DNA of 64,000 nt from Leucoraja ocellata (taxonomy: Eukaryota): assembly GCA_036785375.1 (NCBI GenBank), contig JAWMAR010000008.1, forward strand, positions 17,174,001 to 17,238,000, given 5' to 3'. The position numbers were made by a program, and so were the translations under genes. Shown piece by piece: positions 12,292-48,438 of this stretch (its first letter is position 1; every line of letters begins with the position of its first letter). The notes below the pieces were generated by a model. It saw only the letters and a list, made by a program, of their open reading frames with translations, searched no databases and had not been told where the DNA came from.

Positions 12292-12393
12292 TCAGTCTGA
12301 AGAAGGGTCTCGACCCGAAACGTCATTCATTCCTTCTCTCCAGAGATGCTGCCTGTCCTGCTGAGTTACTCCAGCATTTTGTGTCTACCTTCG
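12292..12393 (+). mobile_element. Single-arm Penelope terminal element with intact hammerhead core (12297-12324)
   Basis: CTGAAGA-A-GGGT CTCG ACCC-GAAA-CGTC; TSD ATTTTACCAA(A/G)CCA at 12278-12291 and 12394-12407. Confidence 0.8.
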
Positions 12394-12410
12394 ATTTTAC
12401 CAAGCCAATT

Positions 12411-14029
12411 GGGTGGCACGGTGGTGCAGCAGTAGAGTTGCTGGCCTTACAGCGCCAGTGACCCGGGTTCGATCCTGACTATGGATGCTGTATGTACAGA
12501 GTTCGTACGTTCTCCCCATGACCACATGGGTTTTTTCCGAGATCTTCGGTTTCCTTCCACACTTCAAAGATGTACAGGTTTTTAGACTCATAGGCTTGGT
12601 ATCAATGTAAAATTGTCCCTTGTCAAGTCAAGTCACATTTATTTATATAGCACATTTAAAAAACAACTCTCGTTGGCCAAAGTGCTTTACATTTGTTATA
12701 GGAATAGCACAACAAAACAAACTATATACATGTAGCCCTCACTCAGTGGACGTCAGGAAAGGCTTGGGAGTATAGACAAGTCTTTAGCCTTGACTTAAAA
12801 GAGTCGATGCAGTTCTGATGGGAAAGGGGATGCTGTTCCGCAGTCTAGGGGCTGCAACCGCAAAGGCGCGGTCACCCCTGAGCTTATGCCTAGACCACGG
12901 GATATTCAGCAGCCCCAAGTCGGCCGATCTGAGGGGCCTGGAGGTGGAGTGGTGGGTGAGAAGACTTTTTATATAGGTGGGGGTAAGCCCATTGAGGGCT
13001 TTGTAGACATGGAGGAGAATCTTGAAGTTTATACGAAACCGCACAGGGAGCCAGTGGAGAGAGGCCAGGATCGGGGTGATGTGGTCCCTTTTTCGGGTGC
13101 CCGTCAGGAGTCTCGCTGCAGCGTTTTGGACCAGTTGCAGGCGGGACAGGGAAGATTGGCTGATGCCAGTGTAAAGGGAGTTGCAGTAATCTAGGCGGGA
13201 GGAGATGAATGTGTGGATGATCTTTTCCAGGTCATCAAACTGGAGGATTTTTTATTTATTTTGGCTATCGTCCGAAGCTGAAAGAAGCTAGCTTTTACCA
13301 CGGCATAGACTTGTTTGTCAAATTTCAGTGCTGAGTCAAATATCACGCCAAGGTTTTTGACGTGAGGTTTGAGTAGTGGGGTAAGGCTTCCAAGGCTGCC
13401 TGCTATCATTTTGATTGAGTCCGAGGGGCCGAGAAGGATGACCTCAGACTTACTCTCGTTTAGTTTCAGGAAGTTCTGGGCCATCCAACACTTTATATCC
13501 TCGAGGCAATGGGTAAGGTTAAACAGATTTGATTGGTTTTTGGGCTTCAGGGGGAGATAGAGTTGGGTGTCGTCTGTGTAGCAATGGAAGGAAATGCCGT
13601 GCCTTTCAATGACTTGTCCTATGGGGAGCATATACAGGGAGAAGAGAATGGGGCCAGGGATGAAACCTTGTGGAACCCCACAGCAGAGATTAGCTGGGGA
13701 GGAGAATGAGTTGCCTATGTTAGTCGAGAAACTCCTACCTTTGAGCTAGGAGATGAACCAGCTCAGGGCAGTGCCATCAATACCAACCCCAACCCGGAGA
13801 CGGTCAATTAGGATGGTGTGGTCGACAGTATCAAATGCTGCACTGAGGTCAAGAAGGAGCAGAATTACACAGTCGCCGGAGTCAACGGTGAGCAGTAGAT
13901 CATTGTGTACCTTCAACAAGGCAGACTCTGTGCTATGGTGAGCATGTACATGTAGGATAGTGTTAGTGTGTGGGTATTGCTGGTTGGTGCAAACTCGGTG
14001 TGCCGAAGGGTCTGTTTCCGTGCTGTAAA
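12411..14029 (+). mobile_element. HE1-like SINE interrupted by an L2 LINE
   Basis: tRNA-like head (tggtgcagcagtagag, ggttcgatcc), V-domain; resumes at ~13945; CAATT on both flanks. Confidence 0.8.
12622..13943 (-). mobile_element. L2-clade LINE, 5'-truncated (RT C-terminal half plus 3' tail)
   Basis: HHSTESALLKVHNDLL, GVPQG, FHCYTDDTQLY, ORFs 13191..13631 and 12784..13044; tail tgtaaagcactttg...tgctatataaataaa(gactt)n. Confidence 0.9.
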
Positions 14030-15302
14030 CAATTCACTTACAACCTGCATATCTTTGGAATGTGAGAGGAAACCGGAACACCCGGAGAAGCCCCACGCAT
14101 GTCACGGGGCTTCTGGCGTGGTAGGCAGCAACTCTACCGCTGTACCTCCGTTGAAAAGCATTAGAAAGCAAAGCTTGTATCCCCTGGAATCTAGAATAAA
14201 GTACTTGTTCAAATGTATAAGATTGTGAAGAGCGTCTGTGGAGGGTGTGTTTTCTCTTGTGTGAGAATGCTGAACCAGGAGGTCACTGATTAAAAATAAG
14301 ACATTGCCCATTTCCGAAAAATATGAGTGTTTTTTTTGTCTGAAAGTTGTGAAACTTTCCAAAATGTGGCGGAATAATGGTCATTGAATATATTTTCAGG
14401 TCAGAGGAGAGTGGATTTTTGTTAAGCAGCAAGGTGAAAGGTTACTACAGGTTGTCAGGAATACAGAGGTGAAGCTACAATCAGATTTTCATAGTTCCCT
14501 CCATATCAGCCCCCAGCAGAACAATCCCATTAGCATCTACTTGCACTTGTGAGTTATTAACAGTAGCTTTTTTAACCTGCCAGCACAGGTTTGAGATGTG
14601 GGAGGAAACCGGAGCATCAGGTTGTTCAGGGAGAATGTACAAACTCCACATTGACAGCACCCAAATTCAGGATTGAACTACATGAAAGTCCTGTAGTATT
14701 TGAGGCTTTGCTCGTTATTTTCCTTGGATTGCTCACCTGCCTTGTTACTTCTGATCCGCATCTTCAAGCTTGCAATAATATTTTCCAATCTTATTTTATT
14801 CATAAAATAGTTTTGCTGAAAGGAGCTGGAGAAATTTGCATTTTGCAAAACAAATCATTCTAAAGTGACAAATTTAGAAAACTAAGGCTCTTCTGGATGA
14901 GAAATTTAACTGGCACAAGCATATAAATATTTTGCTGACATTGTAATAATCTCTTGCAAAGATGTGCATTTATTTTTTCTCCCATCAGTAAAGATGTTCT
15001 TCCCCTTTAAAAATGAATTTCTTTATACATTGAAACTAGTTAAAAAATGGGGAGGTATAATTTTAGATCAACTGATTCTCACCAGGCCAATTAATAGTAT
15101 TTTGCACATTTTTGCATATTTAGTCCTGTATTGTCCTATGTAATTAGATAGGAATTGCGAGCTTCCTCTGATGGAAACCTTGAACTCATGCTTTGCTCTA
15201 GTCTTGCGGTGAAATGCCATAATAGTTAAGAAATTAGTCGTATTGGTATTAGTATTGGTAATGATCATCAATCCGTTTCAAGATTACAGAGTTCATTAAA
15301 AG

Positions 15303-15396
15303 TCTGAAGAAGGGTTTCGACCCAAAACGTTTCCTATTTCCTTTGCTCCATAGATGCTGCCTCATCCACTGAGTTTCTCCAGCATTTTTGTTTACC
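15303..15396 (+). mobile_element. Single-arm Penelope terminal element
   Basis: 11-bp TSD TTCATTAAAAG (15292-15302 and 15397-15407); degenerate hammerhead core. Confidence 0.75.
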
Positions 15397-15598
15397 TTCA
15401 TTAAAAGCAGGTATTTGTTGCAAACTCTAAATTGCTTATTAATTATAACGTCCCTGAAAATGAGTAAATACATCATCCATGTCTTGTTTCATCCATTCTT
15501 CCTTTATCTTTGCTATACTCTGCACATTTAATCATGGAGGAAGCCAATGCTTTCTGCGGGAGATATATATAATTACAGACAAGCTATAAAAATTGAGC

Positions 15599-15804
15599 GT
15601 ACACAGAAAAGCTGGAGAAACTCAGCGGGTACAGCAGCATCTATGGAGCGAAGGAAATAGGCAACGTTTCAGTCTGAAGAAGGGTTTCGGCCCGAAACGT
15701 TGCCTATTTCCTTCGCTCCATAGATGCTGCTGCACCCGCTGAGTTTCTCCAGCTTTTTTGTGTAATTCGATTCTCCAGCATCTGCAGTTCCTTCTTAAAC
15801 ACTG
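15599..15804. mobile_element. Palindromic Penelope-derived element with intact hammerhead core (15674-15701, +)
   Basis: ~70-bp near-perfect inverted arms; perfect 14-bp TSD TATAAAAATTGAGC (15585-15598 and 15805-15818). Confidence 0.85.
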
Positions 15805-18689
15805 TATAAAAATTGAGCCTCTGGCTCAAATCTAACAGTCTGATTTAGCTTAGAACATTGCTTAAGATAAACCTCCCCAGCCCATTGAATACTTTTATGA
15901 CTCCATATTGTATGAGATCAGTGGATTTCAAATGGAACTTTGGAAATATAATTTTCTACATTTGTTCTCCTACATTAACTTGGACCTCAGTACCAATGTT
16001 GATGAGAGTCCTGCAAGGTTGCTGGCAATCAATTTGTCCAAGGGTGATTGTATGACATTGTTCTAATGTCCTTCTTGTTTGACTTTGCAAATATGTTTAG
16101 TTATCTGGAAAAGTGCAGTTGAGAAATATTACGTCACACATGAAAACCTTGGATGGGTGAAACCGATGATCCACTGGGATACTTCAGCACAAAATAAATG
16201 GACCAGAATGTATTACAATCAGTCTAATCGAGAAACACTGGAGGATGAAAGAAAATAAATAATGGTTAGATATTCTTGTTCGTAATTTACAGTTACTTGG
16301 CAGCTGATATGAGAGTTTTTGGCAGATATTTGGGTGCTGGTAGAAATAGCTTTAAAGACAAATACAAAAGTACTTTGTTTCCCAATTATGGCACATATAT
16401 TATCGTTTCTCAAAAAATGCAATCTGTACATTTGGCACAGTTATCAAGGTTTTTTAATTGTGCTCCCAATTCCCTTTGTCAGTCTGGTAATATCTATAAC
16501 ATTAGAATTGGAAGATCAAATAATTGACTCACAAAAGAGGTATTTGGAGAACATGCACATTAAGACAGAGAAGTCAAAATATAATTTTGAAAGCGACTAG
16601 TAAGTTTAACCAATGAAGCCAATAGTAGGTCCCGTTCTCCCATAATACAGGAGGCCATTCGGTCTGTCAAGTCTTTGCCAACTTCTCGGCAATTCAGTCA
16701 ATATTTTTTTCCCCCACTTATTTCCCCGTGATCCATTCTTTTCAATTGCCCATCATCTCCACCTTGATTTTCATACCTTCTCGAGGGAAAGTTTACAGTC
16801 ACCCATTAACCTACCAACCCATACATCTTGGTGATGTGGACTGAAACTAGAGCATCTGGAGCAAGCCCACATGGTCATAGGGAGTACAGTCTCCACAGTG
16901 AGAGCATTAATTCCTGGGTTGAACCTTGCTATAGATGCAAGACACCTACTCTGCCTGCTGCACCACTGTGTTGCCTCGCTAGAGGATGGGTATCGTGGCA
17001 TGCATGCTTGGAACAGGGTGCGATGCTAGCAACTACGTTTTGAAAAGGTTGGAATTTGGATGAAGGACGATCAACCAGGTGAAGATTGGAATAAATACAC
17101 ATTTTCAACAGCTGGGTACAAGCTATTGAGGTGCATGTGGAAGACAACATTTTTGAAAAATTAATGCATTTAATGTTTGACCCCTGTTAATCAATGCATT
17201 GGCTTTCTGAATTCAGTGCTAAGGACAAGGATGCATTTATGGCAGCTTAGTGAAAACCTTGTAATGTGTTTACTCCTTGAAATGTTAGATTCTCTGCTTC
17301 CACGAAGATAGTAGGTAAAGAATTACAGAATATTTAATCTCCTGCCGTAAATGGATGGCAATGTATGATGTATTTGGATGGTGTGTAATTGGGATTAGTA
17401 TAGTGATGTTATTTCTTTATTTTTGTGCTTTTTGTCCCCCTCCTCCATTAGTGGTCGAGATTGCTAGAGAGTTTTTAAAGTAATCAGCATTGATGGAATT
17501 CATATAAATTGCCTGCACTTCAACCTGGTATGTTGGTGATCAAGGAGGGTAGAATATAACATAGAACAGTACAGTACAAGAACAGGTCATTTGGCACACA
17601 ATGTCTGTGCCATATATTATGCGAAGACCAACTCTAAACCGCCTGCATGTTCCTCTGTTTGGGGGAAAAGTACTTGCCCTGCACATCTCCTTTAAAGTTT
17701 GCCCCTCGCCTTAAAGCTGTGCCCTCTGGTATTTGATTTTTCCATCCTGGGAGAACGGTCCTGTATTCTCCATCTATGTCTCTCATAATTTTGTATGCAC
17801 GTCTCAGGCCCCCCCCCCCCGCTACCTCCGGTATGAAGATTTCAAAATCGTCTCAGGCAGCCAATTGTTGGTTTCAGAAATGTATCAAGCCTCATCTGTT
17901 TTAACAACTACATCTTTTATGGAATTGGGAAGTATTCCAGCACATTCCCGATGTGAGCAGGGGAAGATCAGTGTGAAGAGCCAGGATTTTGCTGCTTGTT
18001 ACTGAGCACCGAGGCCTTTGCCATATTTTTGATACCACGATATTTATCAGACAGATCTGTTCATGTTTCTGGACATGGGCAATACCCAAGATGCTGATAG
18101 TTAAGAACTTGACAATGGTTATTTTACTCAAAGTCAGCTTGCTGGCCTTTTCTCATTTGACACAGTTGTTATCTGGTGCATTCACGCTGCTGTTATTCAC
18201 AGCTAGTTTTCAGACCCAACCTAAAGGTATTTTATAATTTTAGCATGAATAAGTAACTTTAATCTGTTATGAATTGATCTAGTTTTGTTTTATTATCGAG
18301 GTACAGTGAAAAGCTTTGTGTTACATGCTAACCAGTCAAAGGAAAGACTATGCATGATTACATCGAGTCGTTCACTGTGGACAGATACATGATCAAGGGA
18401 ATAATGATTCTGCTGTTGGAGTAGAGGTTTAAAAGAGTGGAGCGATTGCAATGAGTGATTGTTTACTGGAAATGTCAATCAGAACTTTTCTGCACAACTT
18501 ATGATTTGAGGAAAAGTAATTGATGCTGAAGAATGAAGTTGAAGAATATTGTGTTGACAATGCTTCCTTGAGCAGAAATGCAGCCATTATGGGCTGTGGA
18601 TGCTGGAACCCTGAGCAAAACACAAAGTGCTGGAGGAATTGAGGGTCAGGCGGCATCTGGGAGAGAACAGACAGGAGACAATCTTTTTA

Positions 18690-19423
18690 TGTGTGGGGGG
18701 TGGTGGGGGGAAACTGCTTTTCCAAGTCCCTACCTGGTCGGAGGGGTTGCCTTCCTCCGAGCAGCGTCTTCGACCCGTCCTCGCGGCCTACCAGCGGGTC
18801 CTGGAGCGACGTTTTCCTGAGGGGCCCTGCCCAGAACATCGGCTTTGGTGCCGGCGCAGAACATCGGCTTTGGCGGCGGCGCCGCGCTGGAGCGCTGTTG
18901 TGGAGCGGGCGATGCCTTCCCTGGGTCGCCGCGCTGGAACTCCAGTATGCAGGGACTGCCGAAAACATCATCGGTGAGCCACGGTTCTGCGGAGCGGCCA
19001 GCTGCGACGCTGAACTTTACATCCCGGAGCCTGGGATCTCTCGTCGAGATCGCCAGTGTGTGGAGCTCCGTTCGGCGCGGTCAGTTTGGCTTGGAAGCCG
19101 CGGGCTCCGTCGGGAAGGCGGCCGTTCCTGGCACCTCAAGCCGCTGGGGGTTCTCCCGACGCCGGAGTACCATCACCCGGCGCGAACATCGGGCGCCGTG
19201 GCGGCGACTGTGGAGGCCTCAATAGGCCCGACTTTGGGTCGACAAGAGGATGGGGACTGAACTTTGTGCCTTCCCCCACAGTGGGAATCACTGTGGGGGG
19301 ATGTTTTATGTTTGGTGTTGAATTTCTTCATGAATACTTTGTTGTATTTTTATTAATGTGCTGCAAGGACATCTGAATTTCCCCTGAATAAGGGGATTAA
19401 TAAAGTTTATTCTATTCTATTCT
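18690..19423 (+). mobile_element. GC/CpG-rich non-autonomous retroelement with LINE-type (Rex1/L2-like) tail
   Basis: tail tcccct-gaata-agggga hairpin, AATAAA, (ttcta)n; interrupts an old Penelope arm. Confidence 0.6.
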
Positions 19424-19769
19424 AACATTTTGGATCGGTTTATAAATGTTGAAGTCCTCCCATGGTGAAGATACTGCTATGGGGAGGGAGTTGCAGGAAT
19501 TTGTACCCAGCCTGCCCCCTTGTCCTTGGAGGTAAAGGTCGTGGGTTTGGGAGGTGCTGTCAAGTAACCCAGGCAAACAACTGCTATGCATTTTATAGAT
19601 GGTACAGATTGCAGCCATTGGGTGATGGAGAGAATAAATGATTAGTGTGGTAGATGGGTTGCCAATATTGCAAGGTGCTTGGTCCTGGATGTTATTGAGT
19701 GTTGGAACTGCTCACCTGAGCCAGTATGAGCCAATTTCCTTGAAATTGTACAACCCTGGGAGAACGGTC

Positions 19770-20335
19770 AGTTGTACAAGACGTTGGTGAGGGCACATTT
19801 AGAGTATTGTGTTCAGTTTGGTCACACTGTTATAGGAACTATGTTGTTAAGCTGGAAAGGGAGCAGAGAAGATTTACAAGGATGATGCCAGGACTCGAGG
19901 GCCTGAGCTATATGGAGAGGTTGAGCAGGCTAGGACTCTATTCCTTGGAGCACAGGAGGATGAGGGGTGATCTTATAGAGGTATATACAATAATGGGTGG
20001 AATAGATAGGGTGAATGCACAGTATTTTACCCAGAGGGGAGGCATCAAGAACCAGAGGACATAGGTTGATGGTAAGGGGCAAAGATTTCATAGTAACCTG
20101 AAGGGCAACATTTTAACACAGAGTGGTAGGGATATGGAACAAACTGTTGGAGGTGGTAGTTGAGGCAGGCACTATCGCAAAGTTTAAAAAAACATTTGGA
20201 CAGGTACGTGAAAAGTATAGGTTTAGAGGGATATGGACCAAATGTAGGCAGGTGGGACTAGTGTGGATGGGTCACGTTGGCCCATTTGGGCAAGTTGGCT
20301 GAAAGGCCTATTTTCACGCTGCATGACCCTATGGA
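19770..20335 (+). mobile_element. CR1 LINE 3' fragment
   Basis: ORF 19807..20064 ...LEREQRRFTRMMPGLEGLSYMERLSRLGLYSLEHRRMRGDLIEVY. Confidence 0.9.
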
Positions 20336-20626
20336 ACAATATATTATGTTTTAATTTCATTTGTTCAGTAATTTTACAAGAAAAGCATTTAGTTTATTTG
20401 TTTTTATTCATTTGTTTCTAACAGATTCATTAACTTTGTCTATCTAGTAGTTACAATTAGGGATGCAGACTTCAAATGAACACATTACAATCTGAAGAAG
20501 AGTCCCAACCCGAAACATTACCTCTCCAATTTCTCCACCGATTCTGCCTGACCCACTGAGTTACTTCAACACTTTCTCAAGATTCTTGCATCTGCAGTTC
20601 CTTGTGTCTCTAAATAACATAAGTGT

Positions 20627-20844
20627 GTAGGAAAGAACTGCAGATGCTAGTTTAAATCGAAGGTAGACACAAAATGCTGGAGGAATTCAGCGGGACAGGC
20701 AGCATCTCTGGAGAGAAGGAGTGGGTGACGTTTCAGGTCGAGACCCTTCAGTCTGAAAAAGGGTCTTGACCCGAAAAGTCACCCATTCCTTCTCTCCAGA
20801 GATGCTGCCTGTCCCGCTGAATTACTAACAGTTTGTGTCTACCT
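20627..20844. mobile_element. Palindromic Penelope-derived element
   Basis: inverted arms; TSD TAAATAACATA(A/G)GTGT at 20611-20626 and 20845-20860. Confidence 0.82.
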
Positions 20845-22186
20845 TAAATAACATAGGTGTTCTGTTTGCTGGCATTTGATCTGAATGGATTTAGTTTCAA
20901 TACTAGGAAGAACTTTGTGCTTTCTGCCATGTGACTAATCATGTGCATGCACACTGGGAATATTTATAGTTGGTTGCCAGCTGCTGGTTTTTGGTATTTT
21001 GCCCACTTCTCCGACTGAGGCTTTGCTGCAGGCCATTAATGCTTGTAAACAGAAAAAAATAATGTGCTCCTGCTTTATAAGAATTTTAAACATGACAAAG
21101 TTTCGTAACAAAATTTAATAGTATTCAATTTTGCACTAGAAGGTTATATTTACAGAAAATAAAATGAGCACTTTGTCTTTTAGTTGTTCTTAGTACAAAC
21201 AAATGGAAACAATATTTTCCTATCCATTCCCAAGGCTGAAGCCAAATAGAATTTTTGCTGTTGCAAATTTCACGAATAGAACAAATTGGTGTTCTGGTTA
21301 AATGTTTGAGATTCAAACATTCTGGAATTTAACTTTTAAAATTGTTAGATCATTTTTTATCCTTTCCAGAAGGAGGACTCATTGAGAAACAATAACACAT
21401 TCTCTTTTTTTCCCATTTGCTGATGCTCAAGATTTGGTTGAGGAATATCACCTGCCATAATGCAATCCTGAGTTTCTACTGCTTCTAGCGTCATTTATAA
21501 CCACATTTATTTACAGACTAATAAAGGCAGTGATGTGCAAAGTGGCAGAGATGTGAATGGTTTGCATTTAAACAAATATTTGTGACAAAGACATCAATTT
21601 AATGTTGCACCTTTTAAAATAATTGCATTTTTTAAGCACGCATTTAACATATGGCTGTATCTTCTTGCTCACTCTGTATTTGAGGCGTTCTGCACTATTT
21701 ATTTTGATGCATTAGACAGTTTCTGACAGAACATTTGAACAGAAGAAGTATGTTGTTAGTTTCTTGTTAGAATTCCAGAGAGCACAATGACTGCAAGATT
21801 GGTGTCTCATGTTTTGAATTAAGGGAGGCAGTCTGGGACATACTGCTGGCAAAATTAACAGCTATTATCAATTTGCCTATTCAGCAGCTTGCCTTGCAAA
21901 AATAATTTCATCTAAATGTGCAAGGGCAAGTCCAACTAACACATGTCAGGGCAAATCCTTGTGCAGTATTGTTAGTGGGCCTTAATACAAATACTTATCC
22001 TTTAGATGTTTTTGGAGTTGGCTTGGCAGTACTCGGATGTGGTTTAAAATATTTAATCAACTGAAGTAAGCTACTTTCCCGTGGCATTTGTTCCTCTGCT
22101 GTGTATTCAGGAGTAAGCATTTTCCACCCCTTCAGGGGAAAACTGCTACACATGTCAATAATTACTTTTTTTTTAAATCATTTCAG

Positions 22187-22219
22187 GAGACTCCAAACTC
22201 TGTTCATTTGGTGATGGAG
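22187..22219 (+). CDS. ULK2: ULK2 exon 4: ETPNSVHLVME (gatekeeper Met)
   Basis: tttcag| ... gag|gtaagt, 33 nt; follows an 18.1-kb intron. Confidence 0.95.
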
Positions 22220-29005: not shown

Positions 29006-29131
<126 letters not shown>

Positions 29132-29889
29132 TAAGCAGATGGAGATTGCATAATATCATGTACCACTCTACCTTATGATTAAGCAATTCTGTGCACTTGA
29201 TTTTACATTCAGGTGCTTCTGTGCTTGTATATATTTTCCAGCCTCCTTATCCCCTTTGGGTATCAAGAAATCTGTGAGAAGGTGTTACGCACTCATTGTA
29301 TACCTTTGCTCATTTGGTTCCAGAGAGTTAAACATCATGTACCGAAGATTATTCATTCTTGCAGAGCATGTGTAATGTTTCTCGGGGCAGTAGAGAATTA
29401 TAAAAATGACAGAAATGGTGAGGATATGAATTAGCCAGTTTATTGCAGGGGATCCTGGCAATTGATTGAGCATATGTGGAAGCAGCTGGAGTAAGCCATA
29501 TGGCCTTTTAGTCTTGCTCTTTGATTCAGTAAGATCAGAGATAATCCTGTACCCCTGGTTCACCTTCTCATCTGATCTACAATTTCCACTATATTTTTTG
29601 ATATAAGGAATTAATCAGCCTTGAATCTACAGGGCGATCAAGCATTCAGAGTCCTATAGTGGAATTTTAAAGAATCCGAACGCAATGAGTAAAGGACTTT
29701 CTGCTTGTCCCAGCCTGAGATAATTGCCCAGTGATCATGTAGTTACTCCAGATTCTTCAGTGTGAATACACTGTCTCCGGGCACTTATCCCGTCTGTCAT
29801 TCTGTGAACCTTCTTGGTTAGAACTCTCATCCTTCCAAACCCCAATGAGTGCAGGCCAGGCATGCGCAATAACTCGTTCTAGATTAAAC

Positions 29890-31165
29890 CTCCTGCACCC
29901 ACACACAACTGACTGACTTCATCCACTTCACCACCAACTTCCATCCGGCACTCCAATACACCTGGACCATTTCTGACACTTCCCTACCATTCCTTGACCT
30001 CACCATCTCCATCGCAGTGGACAGACTTCTGACCGACATACACTACAAACCCACTGACTCACATGGCTATCTGGACTACACGTCTTCCCACCCTGCCCCC
30101 TGTAAAGACTCCATCCCCTACTCCCAATTCCTCCGCCTACGCCACATCTGTTCCCAGGATGAGACGTTCCACACCAGGGCATCGGAAATGTCCTCGCTCT
30201 CAGGGAACGGGGATTCCCCTCCTCCACCATAGATGAGGCTCGCACCAGGGTCTCTTTCATACCCCGCAACACTGCTCTCTCTCTCTCCATCCCCACACTC
30301 GCAACAAGGGCAGAGTCCCCCTAGTCCTCACCTTTCACCCCACCAGCCGGCAAATACACCAAATAATCCTCCGCCATTTCCGCCACCTCCAACGTGACCC
30401 CACCACTCGCCACATCTTCCCATCTCCCCCATGTCTGCCTTCCGCAAAGACCACTCCCTCCGCAACTCCCTTGTCAATTCTTCCCTTCCCTCCCGTACCA
30501 CCCCCTCCCCAGGCACTTTCCGTTGCAACCGCAAGAAATGCAACACCTGTCCCTTCACCTCCCCCCTCGACTCCATTCAAGGACCCAAGCAGTCATTCCA
30601 GGTGCGACAAAGGTTCACCTGTATCTCCTCCAACCTCATCTACTGCATCCGCTGCTCTAGATGTCAGCTGATTTACATCGGTGAGACTAAGCAGAGGTTG
30701 GGCGATCGTTTCGCCGAACACCTCCGCTCAGTCCGCAATAACCTACCTGAACTCCCGGTGGCTCAGCACTTCAACTCCCCCTCCCATTCCCAATCCGACC
30801 TCTCTGTCCTGGGTCTCCTCCATTGCCAGAGTGAGCAACACCAGAAATTGGAGGAACAGCACCTCATATTCCGCCTCGGTTGCTTGCGTCCGGATGGCAT
30901 GAACATTGAATTCTCCCAATTTTGCTAGCCCTTGCTGTTTCCTCCCCTTCCTTAAACCTTGAGCTGTCTCCTCCCATCCCCCCCGCCCTCGGGCTCCTCC
31001 TCCTCCCTTTTTCCTTCCTTCTCCCCCCTACTCAGTCTGAAGAAGGGTTTCGGCCCGAAACGTCGCCTATTTCTTTCGCTCCATAGATGCTGCTGCACCC
31101 GCTGAGTTTCTACAGCATTTTTGTGTACCTTCGATCTTCCAGCATCTGCCGTTCCTTCTTGAATA
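29890..31165 (+). mobile_element. Penelope-like element (Neptune-type): RT C-terminus, Cys linker, GIY-YIG endonuclease, 3' terminal region with hammerhead (31037-31064)
   Basis: FLDLTI..YKPTDSHGYLDYTSSHP..SIPYSQFLRL; CNRKKCNTC; LIYCIRC..YIGETKQRLGDRFAEH..HF..GMN (ORF 30431..30928); frameshifted. Confidence 0.92.
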
Positions 31166-32211: not shown

Positions 32212-32520
32212 GGGGAGGTACGGTGGTGCAGCGGTAGAGTTGCTGTCTTACAGCACCAGAGACCAGGGTTCGATCATGACCGCGGGTGCTGTCTGTATGG
32301 AGTTTGTACATTCTCCCAGTGACCCGCGTGGATTTTCTCCGGGTGCTACGGTTTCCTCCCAAACTCCAAAGACGTACAGGTGTGTAAGTTAATTGGCTTT
32401 GGTAATATTGTAAATTGGCCCTAGTGTGTGTAGGGTAGTGTGCGGGGATCGCCGGTCAGCGTGGACTGAGTGGGCCAAAGAACCTGTTGCCATGCTGTAT
32501 CTCAAAACAAAACTAAATTT
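32212..32520 (+). mobile_element. HE1-like SINE
   Basis: A/B-box head, V-domain, CR1-like tail. Confidence 0.82.
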
Positions 32521-37654: not shown

Positions 37655-37749
37655 AGACACAAAATGCTGGAGTAACTCAGCGGGACAGGCAGCATCTCTG
37701 GAGGGAAGGAATGGGTGACATTTCGGGTCGAGGCCCTTCTTCAGACTTC
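37655..37749 (-). mobile_element. Single-arm Penelope terminal element
   Basis: perfect 14-bp TSD CAGTACCTGAAGCT (37641-37654 and 37750-37763); minus-strand CTGAAGAAGGGCCTCGACCCGAAATGTC. Confidence 0.85.
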
Positions 37750-37763
37750 CAGTACCTGAAGCT

Positions 37764-38270
37764 CTCCTGGCGGGCCGTGGGTGGCGAGGTGGCTTCCCGG
37801 CGAGCTGCAGCTTTATCCAAACAGCAAGCCTGGCTTACCAGCCACAGACCCAGGAACCCACCCAGACAGGGAAGCCCGGTGAATCCCTGAAGACCGTGAA
37901 TCGGAGAGAAGGATGGAGGGAATCGGCAACAGCGGCGGACACTGGACAAAAGTAAGAAGAACCGGGGACGCCAACAATCCGCACCCTGGAGGTCGGCTGC
38001 AGGAAGCAGTCCCTGGTGAACAAGGGCTGAAGAGGGAGGACGATTCACAGGATGACCCGAATGGAGGCGACGGCTGCAACGGGCCTTTGTGGCCAGCTGC
38101 AGCTGGGACTGTAAAATGGCAACACTTGCATATAGAATCTGGGTTGTTCTGTTCATTCTGTACTTACCGGGAGACTGTGCTTATGTATGGTCATAGTCTT
38201 GCTGATCTATATGCAAAAAAAGTATTTCACTGTACCTTGGTGCACGTGATAATGAAGAAACCTTTGAACC
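37764..38270 (+). mobile_element. GC-rich non-autonomous retroelement with tttcactgtacc(t/c)ggtac-type tail
   Basis: tail shared with minus-strand fragments at ~4295, 18290, 37280 and 62750; 5' boundary uncertain. Confidence 0.5.
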
Positions 38271-38857
38271 ACTAGTGAAAGAAACTGGATGAGTAAATCT
38301 CGTACCCACCTGAATGTTGCTTCCACCTGACCTGCTGTGTTCCTCTAGCACTTTGTATTATGTTAGAGTAATCTTTTCTATAGCCTGGAGAAGTTAATCA
38401 AATACTTAAACTATAGCTTCTGCTGCTAATATTAATTAGCATTCTAACTTTGTTAAAGTAGATGCAAAATTATCAAATCCGATAATTAAATGATGGAGAA
38501 AGCAGGTAGCGAAGGGCTTATTTCACAATTACTTTCATTTTCATAATGTGCGTGATGGTCTAATGTTGCAGAGAAAAAATATCGGTCAGTTGTTATCCTC
38601 CAGCTATCAATTTTATTCATACTTCCCTTTAATTCCTTGTAAGTGACTTCAAAAGAAATAGAAGCTTTATATAATGAAAATTGTCTTTGTTTGCTCTGTC
38701 AGGATTGTCCATTTATCTTGCCCTGCTGAAGTTAGGGTGCAGTTTAATAATGTGTATGCTTCAAATCCATTTGATCAATTAAATTAGATATTCACATGCA
38801 GAGCTGTAATAGAATATAGTACTTGCATCTAATGGATTTGGATCATTCTCTCTCCAG

Positions 38858-38952
38858 CGTGTCCTGTCCCTGTTCCTGTGCCCACGTGCCCTGGTTCCGT
38901 GTCTGGTAGTTCTTGTGGCAGCTCTCCATCTTGTCATTTTGCCTCTCCTCCA
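38858..38952 (+). CDS. ULK2: ULK2 exon 12: (S)[31 protein letters not shown]
   Basis: ctccag| ... cca|gtaagt, 95 nt. Confidence 0.95.
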
Positions 38953-39474
38953 GTAAGTAGCATTATTTATTGATGCGATATTCCCCCAAGATCCTATCAG
39001 ATGAACATTTTGTCATTAATGTCAAACAATAAATTAATGTGACCTCGTCGTACTTCATTAAGCGAACCATTCGAAACAATGTAAGTGTTACTGGCTTTCG
39101 TGCACAATTAATTCTAACAAAACAAGATTGATATTTATTTCAGTTTAAAATAAAATCACTACTTAATCCTTGGGGAATACAAAATCTCCATTGAATAGTG
39201 ATATTTAACAAATGATTAACTTTAAGTTGCAGAATCAAAAATTGAACCAGGCTACAAGGCAATAATTAGCAAAATATTGGCAATAACTTTTGTAGCCCAC
39301 CAAATTGTAATACCACTTTTTGGCAATATTAATTTATGTTCTAGCTAAATTTAATTTAATTACAAGTTGTGACACTGAATTCAAACTTTACTGGACCGAA
39401 CAAGAGAGGGTCTGTTATTGGTGTTCCATTCAGCAAACACAAGCAAATTGGTCACACCATGTGGTATCCCAAAA

Positions 39475-40030
39475 CAACATAGAACAGTCCAGCACAAGAA
39501 CAGGCCCTTCAGTCCACAATGTCTGTGCCGAACATGATGCCAAGGCCAACTCTTATCTACTTGCACATAATCCATATCTCTCCATTCCCCGTGTATACTT
39601 ATGCCTATCCAAAAGGCTCTAAAATGTCTTATCAGCCTTAATCACCACTGCAGTGCATTCCGAGCACTCACCACCCACTGTGTGTAAAAAAAAAAAACTT
39701 GCCCTTCACTTATCCTTTAAACTTTGCCATTTTCATCTTAAAACCTACGCCCTCTTTTGATTTTTCCATCCTCGGGGGGAGGTTCTAACTATTTATGCCA
39801 CTCATAATTTTATATGCTTCAATCTGGTGTCCCAGCAATCTCCATTTGTTCCATAGAAAACAATCCCAAGTCTGTCCTACCTCTGCGTAGCTAATAGACC
39901 CCCTCCCCATCCAGGTATCATTCTGGTAAAACTCCTCTGCACCCTTTCCAAAGCCTCCACATGCTTCCTGTAATGAGGTAACCAGAACAGCACGCAATAT
40001 TCCAAAAGTGACCTAACCAAAGTCCTCTAA
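39475..40030 (-). mobile_element. CR1 LINE 3' fragment
   Basis: same segment as 2395-2900. Confidence 0.8.
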
Positions 40031-40515
40031 AACCTAATTCCTTTTGTTAATGCCGGCTGTGTCTGCAAGCTTAGCTACGTGTTTGAACGACGGAGTTCTG
40101 ACAATTCTACTCACAAATCTAAATTCTGAGCTGGATACATAATCTTCCCATTCACTTTAATATAATTAATTGCCAATTAAAGTCAGATCTATACAGCACG
40201 GAAACACAATCTTTGTCCCAATATGTCCATGTCGACCAAGTTGCTTAACCTTAATCTTTCAAGGATTGCCCCAATATTGGATTATACTGCTGTGAACAGA
40301 GAAAATATGAACAAGATACACTATTCAAATTTTGCTGCATGTTTTATAACGTGATCTAAATATGCAACTGAAATCAACAAAAGATAATGGACAAAAGTTA
40401 AGATCCAAATTTGTTTTTTGCCCAAAAAGAGACTTTGCAGATAAGCTGAAATATTATTAGTGGGATTTCATGATTGTATGGTTAATATCTTGTAACTTTT
40501 TTTCCCCTCCTTCAG

Positions 40516-40687
40516 TCATTACCTGACATGCAACGGATACAGGAGGACACTTTGTCTTCCCCACCTTTGGGTCCTCCGAACTATCTGCAGGTTTCCAAAG
40601 ATTCTGCAAGTAGTGGCAGCAAGAACTCTTCGTGTGACACGGATGACTTTGTTCTTGTTCCACATAGCATCTCTTCTGATCAGTCAT
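40516..40687 (+). CDS. ULK2: ULK2 exon 13: [57 protein letters not shown]; LIR motif DDFVLV at 40642-40659
   Basis: ttcag| ... cat|gtaagc, 172 nt; ULK2-diagnostic sequence. Confidence 0.97.
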
Positions 40688-42035
40688 GTAAGCAACTACT
40701 CTTCATTTTGTTGCTTTTGTTTCATTCGTTTCAAATCTTTAGAGACGAGGAGGGAAATCTAAGAATCCTCGAGCAGGTTGACTGCACTTCTGTTCATACT
40801 TTTTGTTTTTTATCCTCTGATCCTTTTGCAAATTTATTTTGCATTCAAGGCTAAAATGCATGGCTGCATTGAATTTAAAATACTTTATTCTAACGAGTCA
40901 GAATGTCCAAAATAGAGATCTTGCACTCTTGAATAATCAAATAATTCCCTGCAAACGCAAAGTCTACCATTACTATAAATATATTGAATATCTTCATATT
41001 TGCATTCATTTTTCTGCAACGATTCGCCTCCTCCTTGCCCTTTCTGAATTTGCCATGAGTCATTTGTGCAATGACTGAATAATTCAAATGTTTTAAAATT
41101 CAGTAGGATTTCAAAATTTTTATCATTGGATAACCAATTGGTTATCGATTGGATTTTACCAATTGGATTTGAGGATGCCATTCAATTATTTGAGCATTTG
41201 GTTTTAAGGTAACTAAAATAATCCAAATTGTGATTTCTGTTGTGTTGGATTGGTAATGTCTAATAGCAGTTTGAGGATTGAACTCGATTCATTCTTAAAT
41301 GCAAGCTGCAGCTTGGTGCCCTTGGTCATGGGAATGTAGGGGTAACAGCTAATCTTTCTATGAATGAATCACTGATGAATAAAAACACAATAAATGACAA
41401 GTGGATGTTTATGTTATCTTGCTGATTTATCCAGTTTAGCATGTTCATACGTAATTGTGACATTTTGTGCTATTATGTACACTGGCTGTAGTATCATCAT
41501 ACTGGAGGTTCCCATGGGACTAGGTTCCAATTTATACTTTTAAACAAATCACAGGCTGCTTTCAGAAGCTCCTCGAGGTATACAAAGGGTCCCAACTCAA
41601 AAGGCCACTTATCCATGTTCTCCAGAGATGCTGCCTGATCTGCTGAGTATCTCTGGCATTTGTGTCCATTTATGTAAACAAGCATTTGCAGTTCCTTGTT
41701 TCTCCAAAATGTATACTTCTGTTGCACGAATTATAGCTTATCCACATCAATTACTAGTTCCTAATGAATTATGTACACAATATATATTATAAATCTTTCT
41801 TCCTTAGCAACCATTGTTTATTTAGGATAAATACTGGATCAGAAAATATATTTAGATTGTTGACACAATTGCATCATCCTTTTCCGAATCCAACTTCCTT
41901 CAACAGTTACGGCACTCATTTGAAGCAATATTTGTAACTATTTAGATTATCTTAACCAGTTTGTGTTTATTGGAAAAGTTTTTGGTGTTCCCAACAAAGT
42001 TTATGCCTCTCAATCTGTTTTGAAACTTTGTACAG

Positions 42036-42096
42036 ATGACATGCCATTGGGAACGGTGGGCAGACGAGCTTCCAGTGAATTTTTGATGTGTGGCGG
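42036..42096 (+). CDS. ULK2: ULK2 exon 14: (Y)DMPLGTVGRRASSEFLMCG
   Basis: tacag| ... cgg|gtgcgt, 61 nt, phase 1-2. Confidence 0.93.
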
Positions 42097-44590
42097 GTGC
42101 GTATAAATTTTTATATTTTATACTTTAGCATTGTTGTATAGAGGGAGGAAAGACTTGCAGTAATACTTCATCATTAGAACACGAAGAAAAACTAACTTCA
42201 CGGATATGTTCTGTTTGTTTTAGAATTAAATATATTATCAATTGAAGTAAATTAAGTTGGTATCACTTAAATAGTGACTTCTTTAAGACTGACAGTGACC
42301 ATGTTCAAGATTCATAATGCTTGAACAAGTCTGTGGGTAAGAATTTGTCCATCCTTCACCCTTCCTCAAATAAATCAGAGCTTGTTTGGTTTTCTTCCCC
42401 CCCCCCCCCCCCAGGAGATGGTACCAGGAATTTAAATATATCAAGTAGAAACAAGGAACAACAGGGCTTTTTTTCTTAAAGCACACAAAGTGCTGGTGTA
42501 ACTCAGCTGGTCGGGCAGCATCTCTGGGGAATGTGGATAGGTAACATTTTGGGTCAAGACCTTTCTTCCTGATCTGAAACGTCACCTATCCATGTTCTCC
42601 AGAGATGCTGCCTTTTTTTTAAAGTATAGACAGTATTCCTAACAATATTATTCAAAGAGCCCTTATTGTTTTTCCCGTTCTGCTGTTATAACAAAAGTGT
42701 TAGCCTAATTACAATGTATGCATGTTCCATAAAATTATGCAACTGGGTGCGTTAATAATTAATTCATAATTAATGGTCCATTAATAATTCCAGCAATTTC
42801 AGAACTTTACTTCTTTACCGATTCAGTTGTGTGGGTGGAGGAGAAGGGAGGATGATGGTTATGGGGAGAATAATGTTCGTGTGGCCCGTGTCAGATGAGT
42901 CAGTGGACTTTTTTTTTAAATCTTGGATTTTGTTTCTTAGTGTTCAGTGTCTAACTTCAAAATTAAATCTGTACCTAAACAAATGTATCTATATCAGACT
43001 GTTTGAAAACCATTTCACAGAGTATTTGCTATGAAGATACTGCAGCTTTATTGACTATTTTGGGGAGCGAGCATCATTGAATATGCAATGTCTTGTGTAA
43101 CTGTGACAATGGGGCATGTGGAACAGGCAGGGTCTTGTGATCAGACATGATTACATTTGGACATGATTTCCTGACATTTGGGTGAGGTACATTTAATTAC
43201 TCCAGGTAATATAAGCTTAGAGGGTGGGAAATGAAAGTAGTTGTTTACCTTGCCTTGATGCAAGCATATAGCTTGTATGATGCAACATGTGTTGCTTGTG
43301 TGAACTACGCTGGAGATGTCTAGACATGTTCATTAACAATATTGATTTCCGTAAATAACTGTCCTTTTTTTTGCAAACTCCTGCAAATAGTAGAAGGCAG
43401 CATTAAATGACTGCTTGATCAAATTACATATATATGGTAAACCAGTGAAAACATCCCACGGTTCTGAAGAGCATTATCTTATTTTTTAACGATGCGATTT
43501 AAGATGTCATTAGGGCAGATGTCTAAGTACTTGATGGGAAAAAAAGTAGATTTTATATTTGAAGATGTAAAGGAAAGGGGGAGTGGCTTTAGTGACAATT
43601 CAATTGCTGAGACAATTCAATTGTTGAAGGCATAGTCCCTCACCATGGGACAGTTTACATTTGGGTATAGTCAAGATGGAGGGGGCACAGGTATTTCAGA
43701 GGATTGCTTGTTTTTTAAAAATTGGAACATTTAATGTATTTTTGGGGAGAAGAGTGATGATGACAAAGTAGGGGTTACAGCTGTTCCCGAGGAGAAAACA
43801 GTAAAAGGTTGAAAACAAAGAACTGCAGGTGCTGGTTTATACCAAAGATAGACACAAAGTGCTGAAGTAACTCAACTGGTCAGACAACATCTCTGCAGAA
43901 CATGGATAGGTGATGTTGTGTTTTACAGACTGGAGGAAATGTTGGTGGTTTATTGGGAATAGAGTAGAGTAGAACATGGAGGTGGTTCTTCTGGACTGAT
44001 GAGTTTGCAGCGAGCGCGAGGAGAGAGGGAGTGAAACTGAAGAAACGTGTATGTTTGAGACCAGGGCAAGATGGACTTGTTTAACCTGTTAAGCTAGAAG
44101 TGTCTTTGACACTTTTTCAAATAGCCTCTTGGTGGAGATGATGGGAGAGGAATGAAGGAACCTGTTTGCAGTTGAAAAAGGAGTGTGCTCCGATCCAAGG
44201 TAACCCTTAAATAGTGGGCAGTTCTTTCTGTACTCTTCCAATAATTTAATTACTATCGACCCAATTTATAATGTGTATCTATTTTTAATAAATATTTAAT
44301 AGTTGACACCTGAGATTGGCCAACCCACAAAAGTACATTATTTCCCCAAATTCACCTCCTTTCAGCATGACTCATAAAATAAAAAGTAAATTGGTGGAAA
44401 AATAAAAATCAATGTTCCTTCCTCCAGGTACTGTCTAAAATCCTAAGGAAAATTATGCCACATATTAGAACTCAGTCAGCCAAAAAGAAGGGGTGTTGGG
44501 TTGGAAAGACTCCTATAGTTATGATGAATTGATTATCAGAATAGCAAAGTAAATACCTACTCTCATTTTGTTTCTTCACAAACCTGTTAG

Positions 44591-44683
44591 GCAGTCACCT
44601 TTAACCTCTTCAGGGGGCTCAGTAGCACTGCAGAGACCTTCCTCGGCCTCATCCAGGTCCAGCTCTTCTAGCTCAGCCAACAG
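44591..44683 (+). CDS. ULK2: Additional symmetric ULK2 exon: (G)QSPLTSSGGSVALQRPSSASSRSSSSSSAN(R)
   Basis: pyrimidine tract + gttag| acceptor, cag|gtagga donor, 93 nt, phase 2-2, stop-free, Ser/Pro-rich, GC-richer than flanks; positioned like the extra ULK1 exon. Confidence 0.78.
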
Positions 44684-47600
44684 GTAGGATCTTCATGTAG
44701 ATTTTATAATGGAATAAAACAGTATGGGGCAGAGTTTCCATGTAGGCCACAATCAAGAGATTATATCTAAAATCTGCTTGAATTTGCATTGCTTAAGTTA
44801 CTCTAAGTCACTGCACAATTGCAAACATTAAATTTTCCATGAGCTACCATAGTAGGCTTTGTAAAGTTTATTAATATAGATATTAATGAGTGGTAACCTG
44901 GTGTAGTTTTGCTAATGTAGTTGCAAAGGCATTCATCAGCAAAATTAAACCTCTAAAGACAAACTTATCTCTGTGGACAAGCCGTTGATTGGAAATGTCT
45001 GTTCTATGAAAAAAAAAGTTATACTGATCATTTAATAGCTACGTTGTCATACACTAGTTGTTTTCTTAACAAACTGAAATGCATTTTGATGTGAAAAATA
45101 TTTTTTAATGAGGGCAGTTTGAAGTGCATTCTTTAATCAGCAGTATCTCTACTTTAAACCAGGAAACGCTCAGTTTATTTCTAGTCAGGAGCCTGACCTG
45201 GTGAATTTTATCTTGAATCCACTGTAAAAGATTATGGAAAACGCAATACGAATTTTTTTTGGACAGAACTTGCAGAACATTTCCCTCGGTTTAATTATAT
45301 CTAAGATCCTGAAGTCTTGTGAGAGTAGATTTGAAGAAACAAAATGAAACTTGTTTTTGACATTGATACACGGGTATTGTTAAATTCGTGATGGCTGTGG
45401 TTTAAAAATTCCTGTTAGCATTGTAACTATTAGCATTTCAGATTAGCAGACTTCAGATTTTTGACCATCTGTGAAGAAATTTAACATCTTTTGGGTAGGA
45501 AAGGAACTTGGGCGAATGAGCCAAGATACACTGCACTCTCTAGAAAGCAACAAAACCGACGTGTTAAATGAAGCATGAAGAAATGCTTTCATGTAAAGTT
45601 CCAAATAACCCGTGTACTTGTCATCTGATATCACTGTTGTTAAAGATTATCTGTACTGATCATATTTGCAAACTTTTATGTAAGACAAGTGAGTGCAGGA
45701 GCAGCCTCCAATAATTATTTGACCTTTTTCCAGTGTCTTATAACATATAACATTTTTAAAGTTGTTTTTCTACAAATATATCATCATTTTATATCTACTC
45801 AATTTATCCAAAGCTGCAGACATTTTTTTTGCAGTATAAAACTTTCTTCTAATCCATTTTGCCTGATCCGTTGCCAAATGATGAATGGTCCAAGAGGGAT
45901 ATGGGCCAAATGCAGGAAAATTGGACTAGCTCAAGGGAGACATTTTGGTTGGAATAGACGAGTTGGGCTGAAGAACCTGTTTCCATGTTGTGAAACTCCA
46001 TGACTCAAAGTTTATTACTTGATGAAACAAATGTTTCATCATGGTAACGTGTCATCTCAAAGATGGTACCTCCTAGTTCCAGCAGATAAAACCCAGAACG
46101 AGACTCAAACTTAAACTCAATTTAAATGTGGGACAAAAGTATTACCATGCAGGATAATAACATGTGACTCATCAATTGCATCTTAATTGAACAGACAGTA
46201 TTTTTGTTTTGAAGTAAGTTGTGCGATTTTTCTGGGAATTGCATCCTGTTTCTTTGTATCGTCTGCATTGGAATACTTTGCACGAGTGGTGTCAGAAAAA
46301 ATTTCCTCCTCAATCTTGGATAATGAAGGGTCAAGATCTGGCCTTTCAAGCCTGCTTCACCATTCAATGTGATCGTGACTGACCAATTCTGCTGTCAGCT
46401 CCTGTTTTCTGCCAGTTCCCCATAACCATTTCCTTGATCTTTCAAACATTTGGATATCTGCACCTTAAATATATCTGATGATTTGGCCCACACCACCAAT
46501 GGGAAGAGAATCCTGGAGATTTACTTCCCATTGAGAAAATACATTTCAATGCATCTGTTTTTTCTTCTGATTTTCTGCACTTTTGCTTCTTGATTATGAG
46601 CAACCCAATTGCTTTTTAACCAGTTTGTCGCAGAAATGTTTATTTGAAGTTGAGCTGTAGTTTTTATAGAATGGAATGTACCTTAGGGGAAAAACTATAC
46701 ACCAAGTGCTGGAGTGATTCAGTGGGTCAGGCAGAATCTCTGGAGAACATGAGGAGGTGGCGTTTTGGGTTGAGGCCCTTGTTCAGACTGATTGTGGTGA
46801 TGGCAGGGAAGAAAACTGGAAGAAATGAAAGCTGAGCAGAATGAAGCCTAGCAAGTAATAGGTAGAGGCAGGTAAGGGGAGGTTTTGGTAGGCAGATGTT
46901 TGGAGAAAGGCAGGAGATAAAAAGACAGACGTTGAGACGAAGATTGAAGAGGAAGAGGGAGGGTAAAAACAGGTATGAGTCCAGGTAGGGCACAGGGGAG
47001 AGGGGGAGAAGAAGAAAAGGGGGGGGGGTAAGTTATGTATATCTTGAACCTATTGTTGCTTTTACTTATACATTTTATTTAACGTGCTAGTTTCAATCAA
47101 GAACATCAGACGGGGAGTAGTTAATAGTTGATGCAGAATAAATATTGGAATATTGGAATTAAAAAACGGCAATAAAAATGATTTACTGTAATTGTGTTAT
47201 AATGGTTTTAAATACAATAGTCAAATAATTGATTATTTCAATTCTACTTTTATGTGGGAGAAAAGATTTGGATTATTACTCGTTTTATTAATTCACATTT
47301 CAATTAAAAAAAATACATTTGATGTTTATCATATTGAGCAGTACAGATGTATTTTTAAAATCGCTTTTAACATTGATTCAAGGGATATAGCCTTTTCTCG
47401 GCTGGGCCAGCATTGAATATCCCACCCCTAGTTTGCCTCAAGAAGGTACTCCAGCCTTCTTGAATCACTGCCGTTCTGAAGTATGAGTAAAGCCACAATA
47501 CTGTTAGGGAGGGTATTTCAGAGTTTGACCCAGTGACGGTGAAAAAATACTGAATTTCCAAGTCGGGATAGTGTGTGGCTTGGTGGGCAATATCTAACGG

Positions 47601-48195
47601 GTGGTATTCCCCTGCTTTTGTTGCCCTCGTCCTTGTAGCTGGTAGAGGTGGGGTTTGGAAGGTACTGTCTAAAGAGTCTCGGTGAGTTGCTGCAGTGCAT
47701 CATGTAGATGGTACAATGCATGTCAGTCTGAAGAAAGATCCCAGTCTGAACCGTCGCCTGTCTAATCTCTTCACAGACGTTGGCTGAACTGAGTTCCTCC
47801 AGCACTTTGTGTTTAACTGAAACTGGAAGACTTGTTGTCTGTCTTGCTCCGTATCATACCACTTAAAGCATACAACCACTGCATCACCTCAGGAGTCCTG
47901 TTTTCAAAAGCTTCTTGTTTAACTGTGCTTTAAATACATTTTACTGTCTGGCATATTGCCTTCAATTTGTTCAGACTAATACACGCAGCTCAATAACTTG
48001 GTGCTTTTCACATAATGTGTAATTTTCTGAGATGTAGTTCAAGTCCACTGCAATTGATTTCTTATTCCTAGACAGGATGTGATCGGGGATAGTGAATCTG
48101 TATTACTACTGTGTACCCCTGAAATTTCGTTTGATTGGCGTCTGGGGGAAAACTGTTCAGGATGAATTTGAACTGTAAGATATGGTTGGAGAGAT

Positions 48196-48438
48196 GTGTG
48201 TAGGAAGGAACTGCAGATGCTGGCTTAAACCGGAAAATAGACACAAAAAGCTGGAGTAACTCAGCAGGGCCGGCAGCATCTCTGGAGAGAAGGAATGGGT
48301 AAAGTTTCGGCTCGAGTACCCTCTTCAGACTGAAGGAGGGTCTGAAGAAGGGTCTCGACCCGAAACATCGCCCATTCCTTCTCTCCAGAGATGCTGCCTG
48401 TTCCACTGATTTGCTCCAGCTTTTTGTGTCTATCTTTA
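48196..48438. mobile_element. Palindromic Penelope-derived element, hammerhead-like core 48342-48369
   Basis: inverted arms; 11-bp TSD GTTGGAGAGAT (48185-48195 and 48439-48449). Confidence 0.83.

Follow-up and report, generated by a model that had tools for sequence, protein, structure and literature searches.

Results

Hammerhead motifs in the introns of ULK2

The DNA considered here is a 64,000-nt stretch from the skate Leucoraja ocellata (GenBank assembly GCA_036785375.1, contig JAWMAR010000008.1, positions 17,174,001 to 17,238,000 of the forward strand), hereafter the window, in which the introns of the gene ULK2 hold short copies of a Penelope-like element (PLE) bearing minimal hammerhead ribozyme motifs. 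ULK2 was recognized through one exon whose best named full-length matches include ray and shark ULK2 (88-93%), and mapping of the Mobula protein onto the window placed 20 ULK2 exons, all on the plus strand. Exon matches and protein mapping bear out an earlier examination of the letters alone (the sequence-only reading), which had put ULK2 on the plus strand and the motifs at 12297 and 15674 in its intron 3. Both of these sense cores lie in this intron (4064..22186, plus strand, 18.1 kb), along with six arms of the same family in antisense orientation, and the core at 31037 sits in intron 7; the numbering presupposes that a single coding exon precedes the window.

A profile search of the window returned 36 arms of the family, 18 per strand, arranged singly or head-to-head (nine fold-backs) with no head-to-tail tandem units. 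Direct scanning agrees with the sequence-only reading that the motif is intact on the plus strand at 12297..12324, 15674..15701 and 31037..31064. The 12297 core is of subfamily A type, with a predicted cut after 12324, and lies in an arm (12291-12407) without a local fold-back. The 15674 core belongs to the young subfamily B and is predicted to be buried in its own fold-back, an insertion at 15589..15795 made up of an inverted arm (15589-15673) and a direct arm (15669-15795). All cores had been assigned to mini-elements, which does not hold for 31037: here the core closes a coding Penelope copy that is 5'-truncated and 1.25 kb long.

The remaining copies show graded decay. The core at 48342..48369 (+), earlier proposed to be near-intact, keeps its catalytic boxes with a broken palindrome (ACAU), and lies inside a fold-back (48203-48449) with its partner core at 48301-48328 (-). 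A near-intact copy antisense to ULK2 does exist, one base away from its predicted coordinates (37717..37744 on the minus strand rather than ~37718-37745), and has AUGU in place of ACGU. All seven decayed copies that had been listed were located, each with specific lesions. Cores at 15304..15331 and 53269..53296 (both +) have G12 changed to A; 47728..47755 (+) has A15.1 changed; and 20492..20519 (+) retains its boxes but has lost a helix II pair and the palindrome. Three further cores lie in fold-backs: 9420 within 9319..9508 (G5 and A6 changed), 20753 within 20631..20863 (G8 to A) and 56547 within 56435..56650 (G12 and A15.1 changed). The antisense arms of the first two are complementary to the 12297 arm, with a predicted -191 kcal/mol for the copy at 20631..20863.

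Across the whole 3.44-Gb assembly the exact motif has 31,963 matches on the plus strand and 32,715 on the minus strand (64,678 in total, one per 53 kb), versus 0 for a reversed-motif control, so that the copies are not chance occurrences. The same exons were seen on two contigs in several cases (C73/C466, C95/C402, C63/C329, C141/C1111 and C346/C932); the assembly therefore contains unpurged haplotypes and the copy counts are inflated, with the density of one per 53 kb unaffected. Set against the genome mean, three exact copies per 64 kb have P=0.12, and three on one given strand P=0.023. Given this density, ULK2 is not special in carrying exact cores. An orthology look-up found no listed contig of a related species that spans the insertions at 12297, 15674 or 31037.

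The motif has the parts of a minimal hammerhead

Inspection of the cores reveals the catalytic boxes C3-A9 and G12-A15.1, together with U16.1 and H17, in order, as well as an unpaired nucleotide that separates position 9 from 10.1, and a G10.1-C11.1 pair. Positions 15.2-16.2 are palindromic with no real helix III, reading ACGU in 8/8 subfamily consensuses. The same traits, including CUGANGA and GAAA boxes, the unpaired base 9/10.1, the G10.1-C11.1 pair, a palindrome as helix III and a location in the end repeat, characterize the minimal hammerhead ribozymes (min-HHRs) of metazoan PLEs (PMC4209133, Cervera and De la Pena 2014). The proposed identity, a Penelope-type minimal type I hammerhead whose A9 is followed by an additional A and whose helix III is reduced to the palindrome ACGU, is thereby matched. 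In that work monomers are inactive and dimers cleave weakly, and a 2-bp helix I is described for a D. virilis variant. The hammerhead of Anolis Poseidon cuts only with the element's protein, with no RNA-seq ends at its site (PMC11167929).

Conservation was compared between the core and its flanks, as the sequence-only reading had suggested. Among eight tail-defined subfamily consensuses, 0/11 box columns vary versus 21/55 tail columns (p=0.012); the core is the more conserved. The consensus helix II loops are CUCG, UUCG and CCCG, which retains two of the three loops proposed earlier and identifies the third, CCCA, as CpG-decayed CCCG. Helix I, put at 2-4 bp, is 2 bp in most copies, the third pair being an A-C mismatch. 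Changes in helices I and II between subfamilies are one-sided, from U-A to U-G, and preserve pairing; over 12 copies, 92% of helix II cells are paired and covariation is not above shuffles. A scan of the window against Rfam at E<=10 gave 26 matches with no hammerhead family among them, as expected for a motif so reduced.

The cores end a Penelope-like retroelement

The most informative copy is a 5'-truncated, frameshifted PLE at 29888..31158 (+), comprising the C-terminus of the reverse transcriptase (RT), a linker, a GIY-YIG endonuclease (EN), a 3' untranslated region with the hammerhead, and a tail. Over 1250 nt, 29888-31129 is 95.5% identical to another genomic locus, L042. Its GIY-YIG frame (30398..30925, plus strand; PF01541, E=8.6e-5) has 150 scored relatives at 91-100% identity, and the distance from the GIY-YIG stop to the hammerhead core is 88-123 nt (mostly 113-114) in 30/30 loci with this endonuclease. 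Long frames combine RVT_1 with a GIY-YIG at the C-terminus in one frame, with YIDD and DKG motifs; the GIY-YIG score falls slightly below the curated cut-off in the long frames and above it in the window frame. The Penelope origin proposed from sequence therefore stands, given the position of GIY-YIG 5' of the core and the RT plus GIY-YIG frames.

Between RT and EN lies a CX4CxxC linker, at residue 514 of the L043 frame. A CX2-5CxxC linker is described as a Neptune/Nematis trait, not found in Poseidon (PMC8557442). In loci L041 and L042 there is an inverted, 5'-truncated copy of 240 nt, and a PLE layout with such inverted copies is reported in the same paper. The cores form the 3' ends of a Penelope-like retroelement whose linker is of the Neptune type, the clade being assigned by motif only.

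Short copies are 5'-truncated ends with a preferred start. In the youngest family, 18/32 core-bearing arms stop <=6 nt upstream of C3 and 12/32 extend >=15 nt. Most short copies, both in the window (12291-12297, 15669-15674, 20747-20753) and in the genome sample, begin no more than a few bases upstream of C3, at a point where the sequence makes a short inverted repeat (TCAG-T-CTGA) and where fold-back junctions cluster. Head-to-head pairs account for 294/753 arms of the genome sample. Only 2 arms start at the predicted cut site, versus >100 at each of the first columns; cleaved RNA appears not to be the usual insertion template, for want of 5' ends at this site.

Predicted folding of the intronic cores

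Five copies were folded with flanks of 40, 150 and 300 nt (15 contexts), which gives equilibrium predictions without protein. Helix II had a predicted probability of <=0.03 in 15/15 contexts, and freeing the core for folding was predicted to cost 4.8-27.9 kcal/mol. The fold-back at 15589..15795 runs for 79 bp at 94% complementarity across the 3' box, the palindrome and the cut site. Its predicted energy is -136 kcal/mol, its left arm is transcribed first, and ACGU and the cleavage site are fully paired in every context. Four antisense arms of intron 3 tested against the 12297 arm gave -96 to -191 kcal/mol, versus -1.7 kcal/mol for the ACGU duplex alone. A dimer drawn from 12297 and 15674 reached -13.0 kcal/mol, versus free monomer ensembles of -6.9 and -8.9 (summed, -15.8). 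The sequence-only reading had proposed that such a dimer could cut intron 3, which the predicted full pairing of 15674 in its fold-back and the low helix II probability do not support. No listed RNA record contains 10500-17500 of the window. Poly(A) raw reads from a related species (~6% of the run) showed no pile-up of molecule ends, and are uninformative for ULK2 given near-zero unique-intron depth and cross-mapped repeats.

Strand distribution of intact cores in introns

Intronic copies were compared by strand on the rationale that sense copies cutting the pre-mRNA ought to be purged. The first sample covered 160 stretches of 10 kb in 18 genes, with gene strand set by Pfam exon matches, and the second covered 20 more 10-kb stretches in 7 genes; both samples together represent 25 genes other than ULK2 and 1.8 Mb. 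All arms taken together are strand-balanced (825 in total, 417 sense vs 408 antisense). Exact cores number 30 sense vs 8 antisense, divided as 30:5 in the first sample and 0:3 in the second. Intact boxes occur in 97/195 of the arms in sense and 54/169 of those in antisense orientation, one single-sequence cluster (1/365 core-spanning arms) being left out of these counts; for the second sample the corresponding figures are 3/12 and 5/16. Mantel-Haenszel odds ratios (ORs) for intact boxes are 2.0 (p=0.007) in family-by-age strata and 2.3 by gene, with 16 genes leaning sense vs 6 antisense (p=0.052). Flipping strand labels gene by gene gave p=0.017 for boxes (24 genes) and p=0.029 for exact cores (25 genes), and the skew persists when any single gene is left out (p 0.0005-0.009). 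These introns give no sign of active sense copies being purged, an idea that was rejected because the skew runs the opposite way.

The skew is limited to the core window, and random tail columns equal it in 1.5% of draws. Control repeats are without significant orientation bias, at 182:155 for a family resembling tRNA-derived short interspersed elements (SINEs) and 27:31 for PLE open reading frames. Mean non-CpG divergence is 0.083 for the core on both strands, and 0.084 and 0.090 for the tail; decay after insertion looks neutral on average. Sense arms show a positive association between 5' and 3' box integrity (OR 3.0, p=0.001) that antisense arms do not (OR 0.7). Against tail-column controls the antisense deficit is the outlier (0.13%) and the sense linkage is not (7.7%), which speaks more for a loss of intact copies in antisense than for sense retention. 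Fully competent cores make up 35/195 sense vs 15/169 antisense arms. Same-age fold-back pairs lean sense (11:4, not significant), mean core mismatches in fold-back pairs are equal (230:230), and the pairing of helices I and II shows no strand difference among intronic arms. The youngest family is sense-biased overall (42:20), with 24 core-spanning arms in sense and 5 in antisense orientation.

The reverse strand of the core (e.g. 37717-37760) consists of a pyrimidine run followed by CAG, resembling a moderate 3' splice site. Among intronic AGs this antisense CAG ranks at the 84th-92nd percentile, a score shared by genuine ULK2 acceptors at the low end of their range. The bases that form the AG are preserved in 91% of arms in sense and 82% in antisense orientation (p=0.02), and under a splice-type definition the figures are 61% and 44% (p=0.002). 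No strand difference appears in the acceptor-score distributions (p=0.68, with a crude 20-site matrix) or in an upstream initiator-like motif of the arms.

Several technical and mutational sources of the skew were discarded. On the gene-sense strand of family repeats, non-CpG G>A stands at 0.064 vs 0.054 for C>T (p=0.002), a transcription-associated asymmetry; as a cause of the skew it has the wrong direction, since sense-strand purines mutate more. Local copying within a gene was rejected, intact copies of the same gene being no more alike than others (0.152 vs 0.158, p=0.63), and a strand mix-up was excluded by translating exons on their assigned strands. Neighbouring exact matches on contig 1 share a strand in 50/96 cases, with no clear runs, and are uninformative as to same-strand clustering. 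A comparison of fold-back tails (382 vs 458) was discarded because the family had been assigned from the sense arm.

Other repeats in the window

The tRNA-SINE-like family that served as orientation control, putatively HE1, occurs at 12432-12612, 32233-32414, 54447-54615 and 58705-58886, and one copy adjoins the 12297 arm. Reverse-transcriptase fragments of long interspersed elements lie in ULK2 intron 3 at 6670-7197 (+) and 12787-13745 (-), with PF00078 on 6670-7197 and 13194-13745. Long poly-G and poly-C runs face each other at 58521-58690. MicroRNA-like Rfam matches in the window are spurious because of the fold-backs and the poly-G/C runs.

Discussion

The hammerhead cores in ULK2 come from an abundant retroelement whose copies are 5'-truncated, often folded back on one another and conserved in their catalytic boxes among subfamilies. 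We favour, at a probability of roughly 0.75, a reading in which the cores are the 3' end repeat of this PLE, the ribozyme serves the element, and the ULK2 copies are passengers too slow to matter. The element has left tens of thousands of 5'-truncated copies across the genome. In its own tandem transcript, or when held by the RT-endonuclease protein, two cores (or one helped core) may take up their fold and cleave after GUH. Within host introns, a core would misfold or pair with an antisense arm, and would decay by ordinary mutation. Slow intronic ribozymes without effect on splicing have been reported (Fong 2009 as cited in PMC10919898).

Several observations weigh against this passenger reading. 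Pure passengers would not predict a sense excess, and the excess holds under stratification for intact boxes and under gene-by-gene label flips for both boxes and exact cores, with mutation asymmetry pointing the wrong way. The 12297 core is free of any local fold-back, and with flanks of 150-300 nt an unpaired ACGU is predicted for it; equilibrium folding moreover leaves out proteins, co-transcriptional kinetics and tertiary contacts. As for the element, the 751-aa frames begin within the inverted copy, and no complete element with an intact N-terminus was recovered.

The conserved boxes might act as promoter or protein-binding signals of the element instead of as a ribozyme. Helix II covariation no higher than shuffles and the scarcity of 5' ends at the cut site would suit such signals, and cleavage is dispensable for insertion in vitro (PMC11167929). 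All 11 catalytic positions, H17, the G10.1-C11.1 pair, the extra base and the palindrome nevertheless match the min-HHR order (PMC4209133), and the Poseidon homologue cleaves in a G8/C3-dependent manner (PMC11167929), which leaves this explanation unlikely. We regard as very improbable that 12297 and 15674 pair via ACGU to form an active double hammerhead that cuts intron 3 of ULK2 as it is transcribed. In its favour, the two cores are intact and in sense orientation within one intron, 3.4 kb from each other, and min-HHR dimers are on record as cleaving at a low level (PMC4209133). Against this, the 15674 palindrome and cut site are predicted to be locked in a fold-back whose left arm comes first, the drawn dimer is less stable than the summed monomer ensembles, antisense arms are predicted to bind 12297 far more strongly than an ACGU duplex would, and helix I has only 2 bp.

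Whether the strand skew is real is about an even question, several cuts having been chosen post hoc and the second sample disagreeing. We lean, tentatively and at somewhat under even odds, toward sampling fluctuation, or a preference of young copies for one orientation at insertion, the core itself being under no selection. The reversed skew of the second sample, the marginal split among genes and the lack of strand runs on contig 1 are in keeping with this, and the sense bias of the youngest family as a whole may contribute; survival of the skew in strata and under single-gene omission, its restriction to the core window and the unbiased control repeats speak against it. It is possible, though doubtful, that intact antisense copies are mildly harmful and purged, as cryptic 3' splice sites or antisense internal promoters, with the copies otherwise passengers. 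Such harm is compatible with the passenger reading and would fit the acceptor score of the core's reverse strand, the better-kept AG-forming bases of sense arms, the outlying antisense deficit, the youngest family's core-spanning arms and the internal promoter of Drosophila Penelope (PMC2377424). Acceptor scores and initiator-like motifs are nevertheless alike on both strands, and the features were picked after the fact, which makes splice use a candidate only. Host selection that preserves functional cores among a minority of the intronic sense copies (roughly a quarter), cutting or tuning pre-mRNAs perhaps with the help of the element's protein, is improbable. The sense excess of intact boxes, their linkage in sense arms, the lean of fold-back pairs and the share of fully competent cores point in its direction, and domesticated intronic hammerheads exist in amniotes (PMC6155905). 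The second sample, the unexceptional sense linkage against tail controls, the equal helix pairing and the equal core mismatches of fold-back pairs do not, and it is difficult to see how purifying selection would act on scattered copies in their thousands. Less probable still is the far-reaching version, in which thousands of intronic cores are under strand-specific host selection and sense cores are kept to cut or tune pre-mRNAs, possibly only when chaperoned by the element's protein. If true, a retrotransposon protein would be a genome-wide intron-cleavage switch.

Hammerheads in Penelope end repeats are already known, dispersed and opposite-strand copies included: those of PMC4209133 are likewise mostly dispersed single truncated copies with some close opposite-strand pairs. 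The skate family differs in number, with 64,678 exact copies in an assembly with duplicated haplotypes vs ~4,000-9,000 in coelacanth and Xenopus, and in its 4-bp helix II and 2-bp helix I vs 7-8 and 4-5 bp in Schistosoma (PMC4209133). Two of the three supplements of that paper contain no shark or skate term; the third and the supplements of bioRxiv 10.64898/2026.07.22.740005 may list one. With EN+ PLEs of the Neptune clade (PMC8557442) the skate element shares an RT followed by a C-terminal GIY-YIG, the CX2-5CxxC linker, a CCHH-type motif and DKG, along with 5' truncation, an inverted 5'-truncated copy and an optional tail; it differs in that its clade is a motif-based assignment and its copies lack a recovered N-terminus. 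The Anolis Poseidon element PAc (PMC11167929, Frangieh et al. 2024) also has a hammerhead in its pseudo-long terminal repeat (pLTR) and a downstream tail of two lengths, yet belongs to another clade and has an open reading frame that starts inside the ribozyme.

Sense-strand ribozyme motifs within introns are also found in CPEB3 (PMC10919898) and as the RECK, CTCL and DTNB hammerheads (PMC6155905). Those ribozymes occur at one locus each and are conserved between species; the RECK type is depicted as having conserved tertiary contacts (PMC6155905) and CPEB3 has a measured half-life of 2-3 min (PMC10919898), whereas the skate cores are young, high-copy, minimal and predicted to misfold. Non-LTR retrozymes (bioRxiv 10.64898/2026.07.22.740005) are likewise PLE-derived type I hammerheads of vertebrates, including a chondrichthyan, but form head-to-tail tandem arrays depleted in introns, whereas skate copies are single or head-to-head. 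The genic distribution of Xenopus retrozymes was analysed there, with no strand analysis in the parts covered. Our literature search found no paper on this skate family or on strand bias, most subscription journals lying outside its coverage.

The locus itself matters little, ULK2 being one more gene in which a known, abundant element has left its ends. The family, by comparison, is a natural experiment, in which counting copies asks whether the host sees a catalytic core. The in vivo role of PLE hammerheads is described as still open (PMC4209133, PMC8557442), and the sense excess runs contrary to the outcome expected if active ribozymes were purged. If the skew replicates, it would point to selection for cores, hidden antisense harm or transcription-coupled insertion, any of which would be new for Penelope-like elements.

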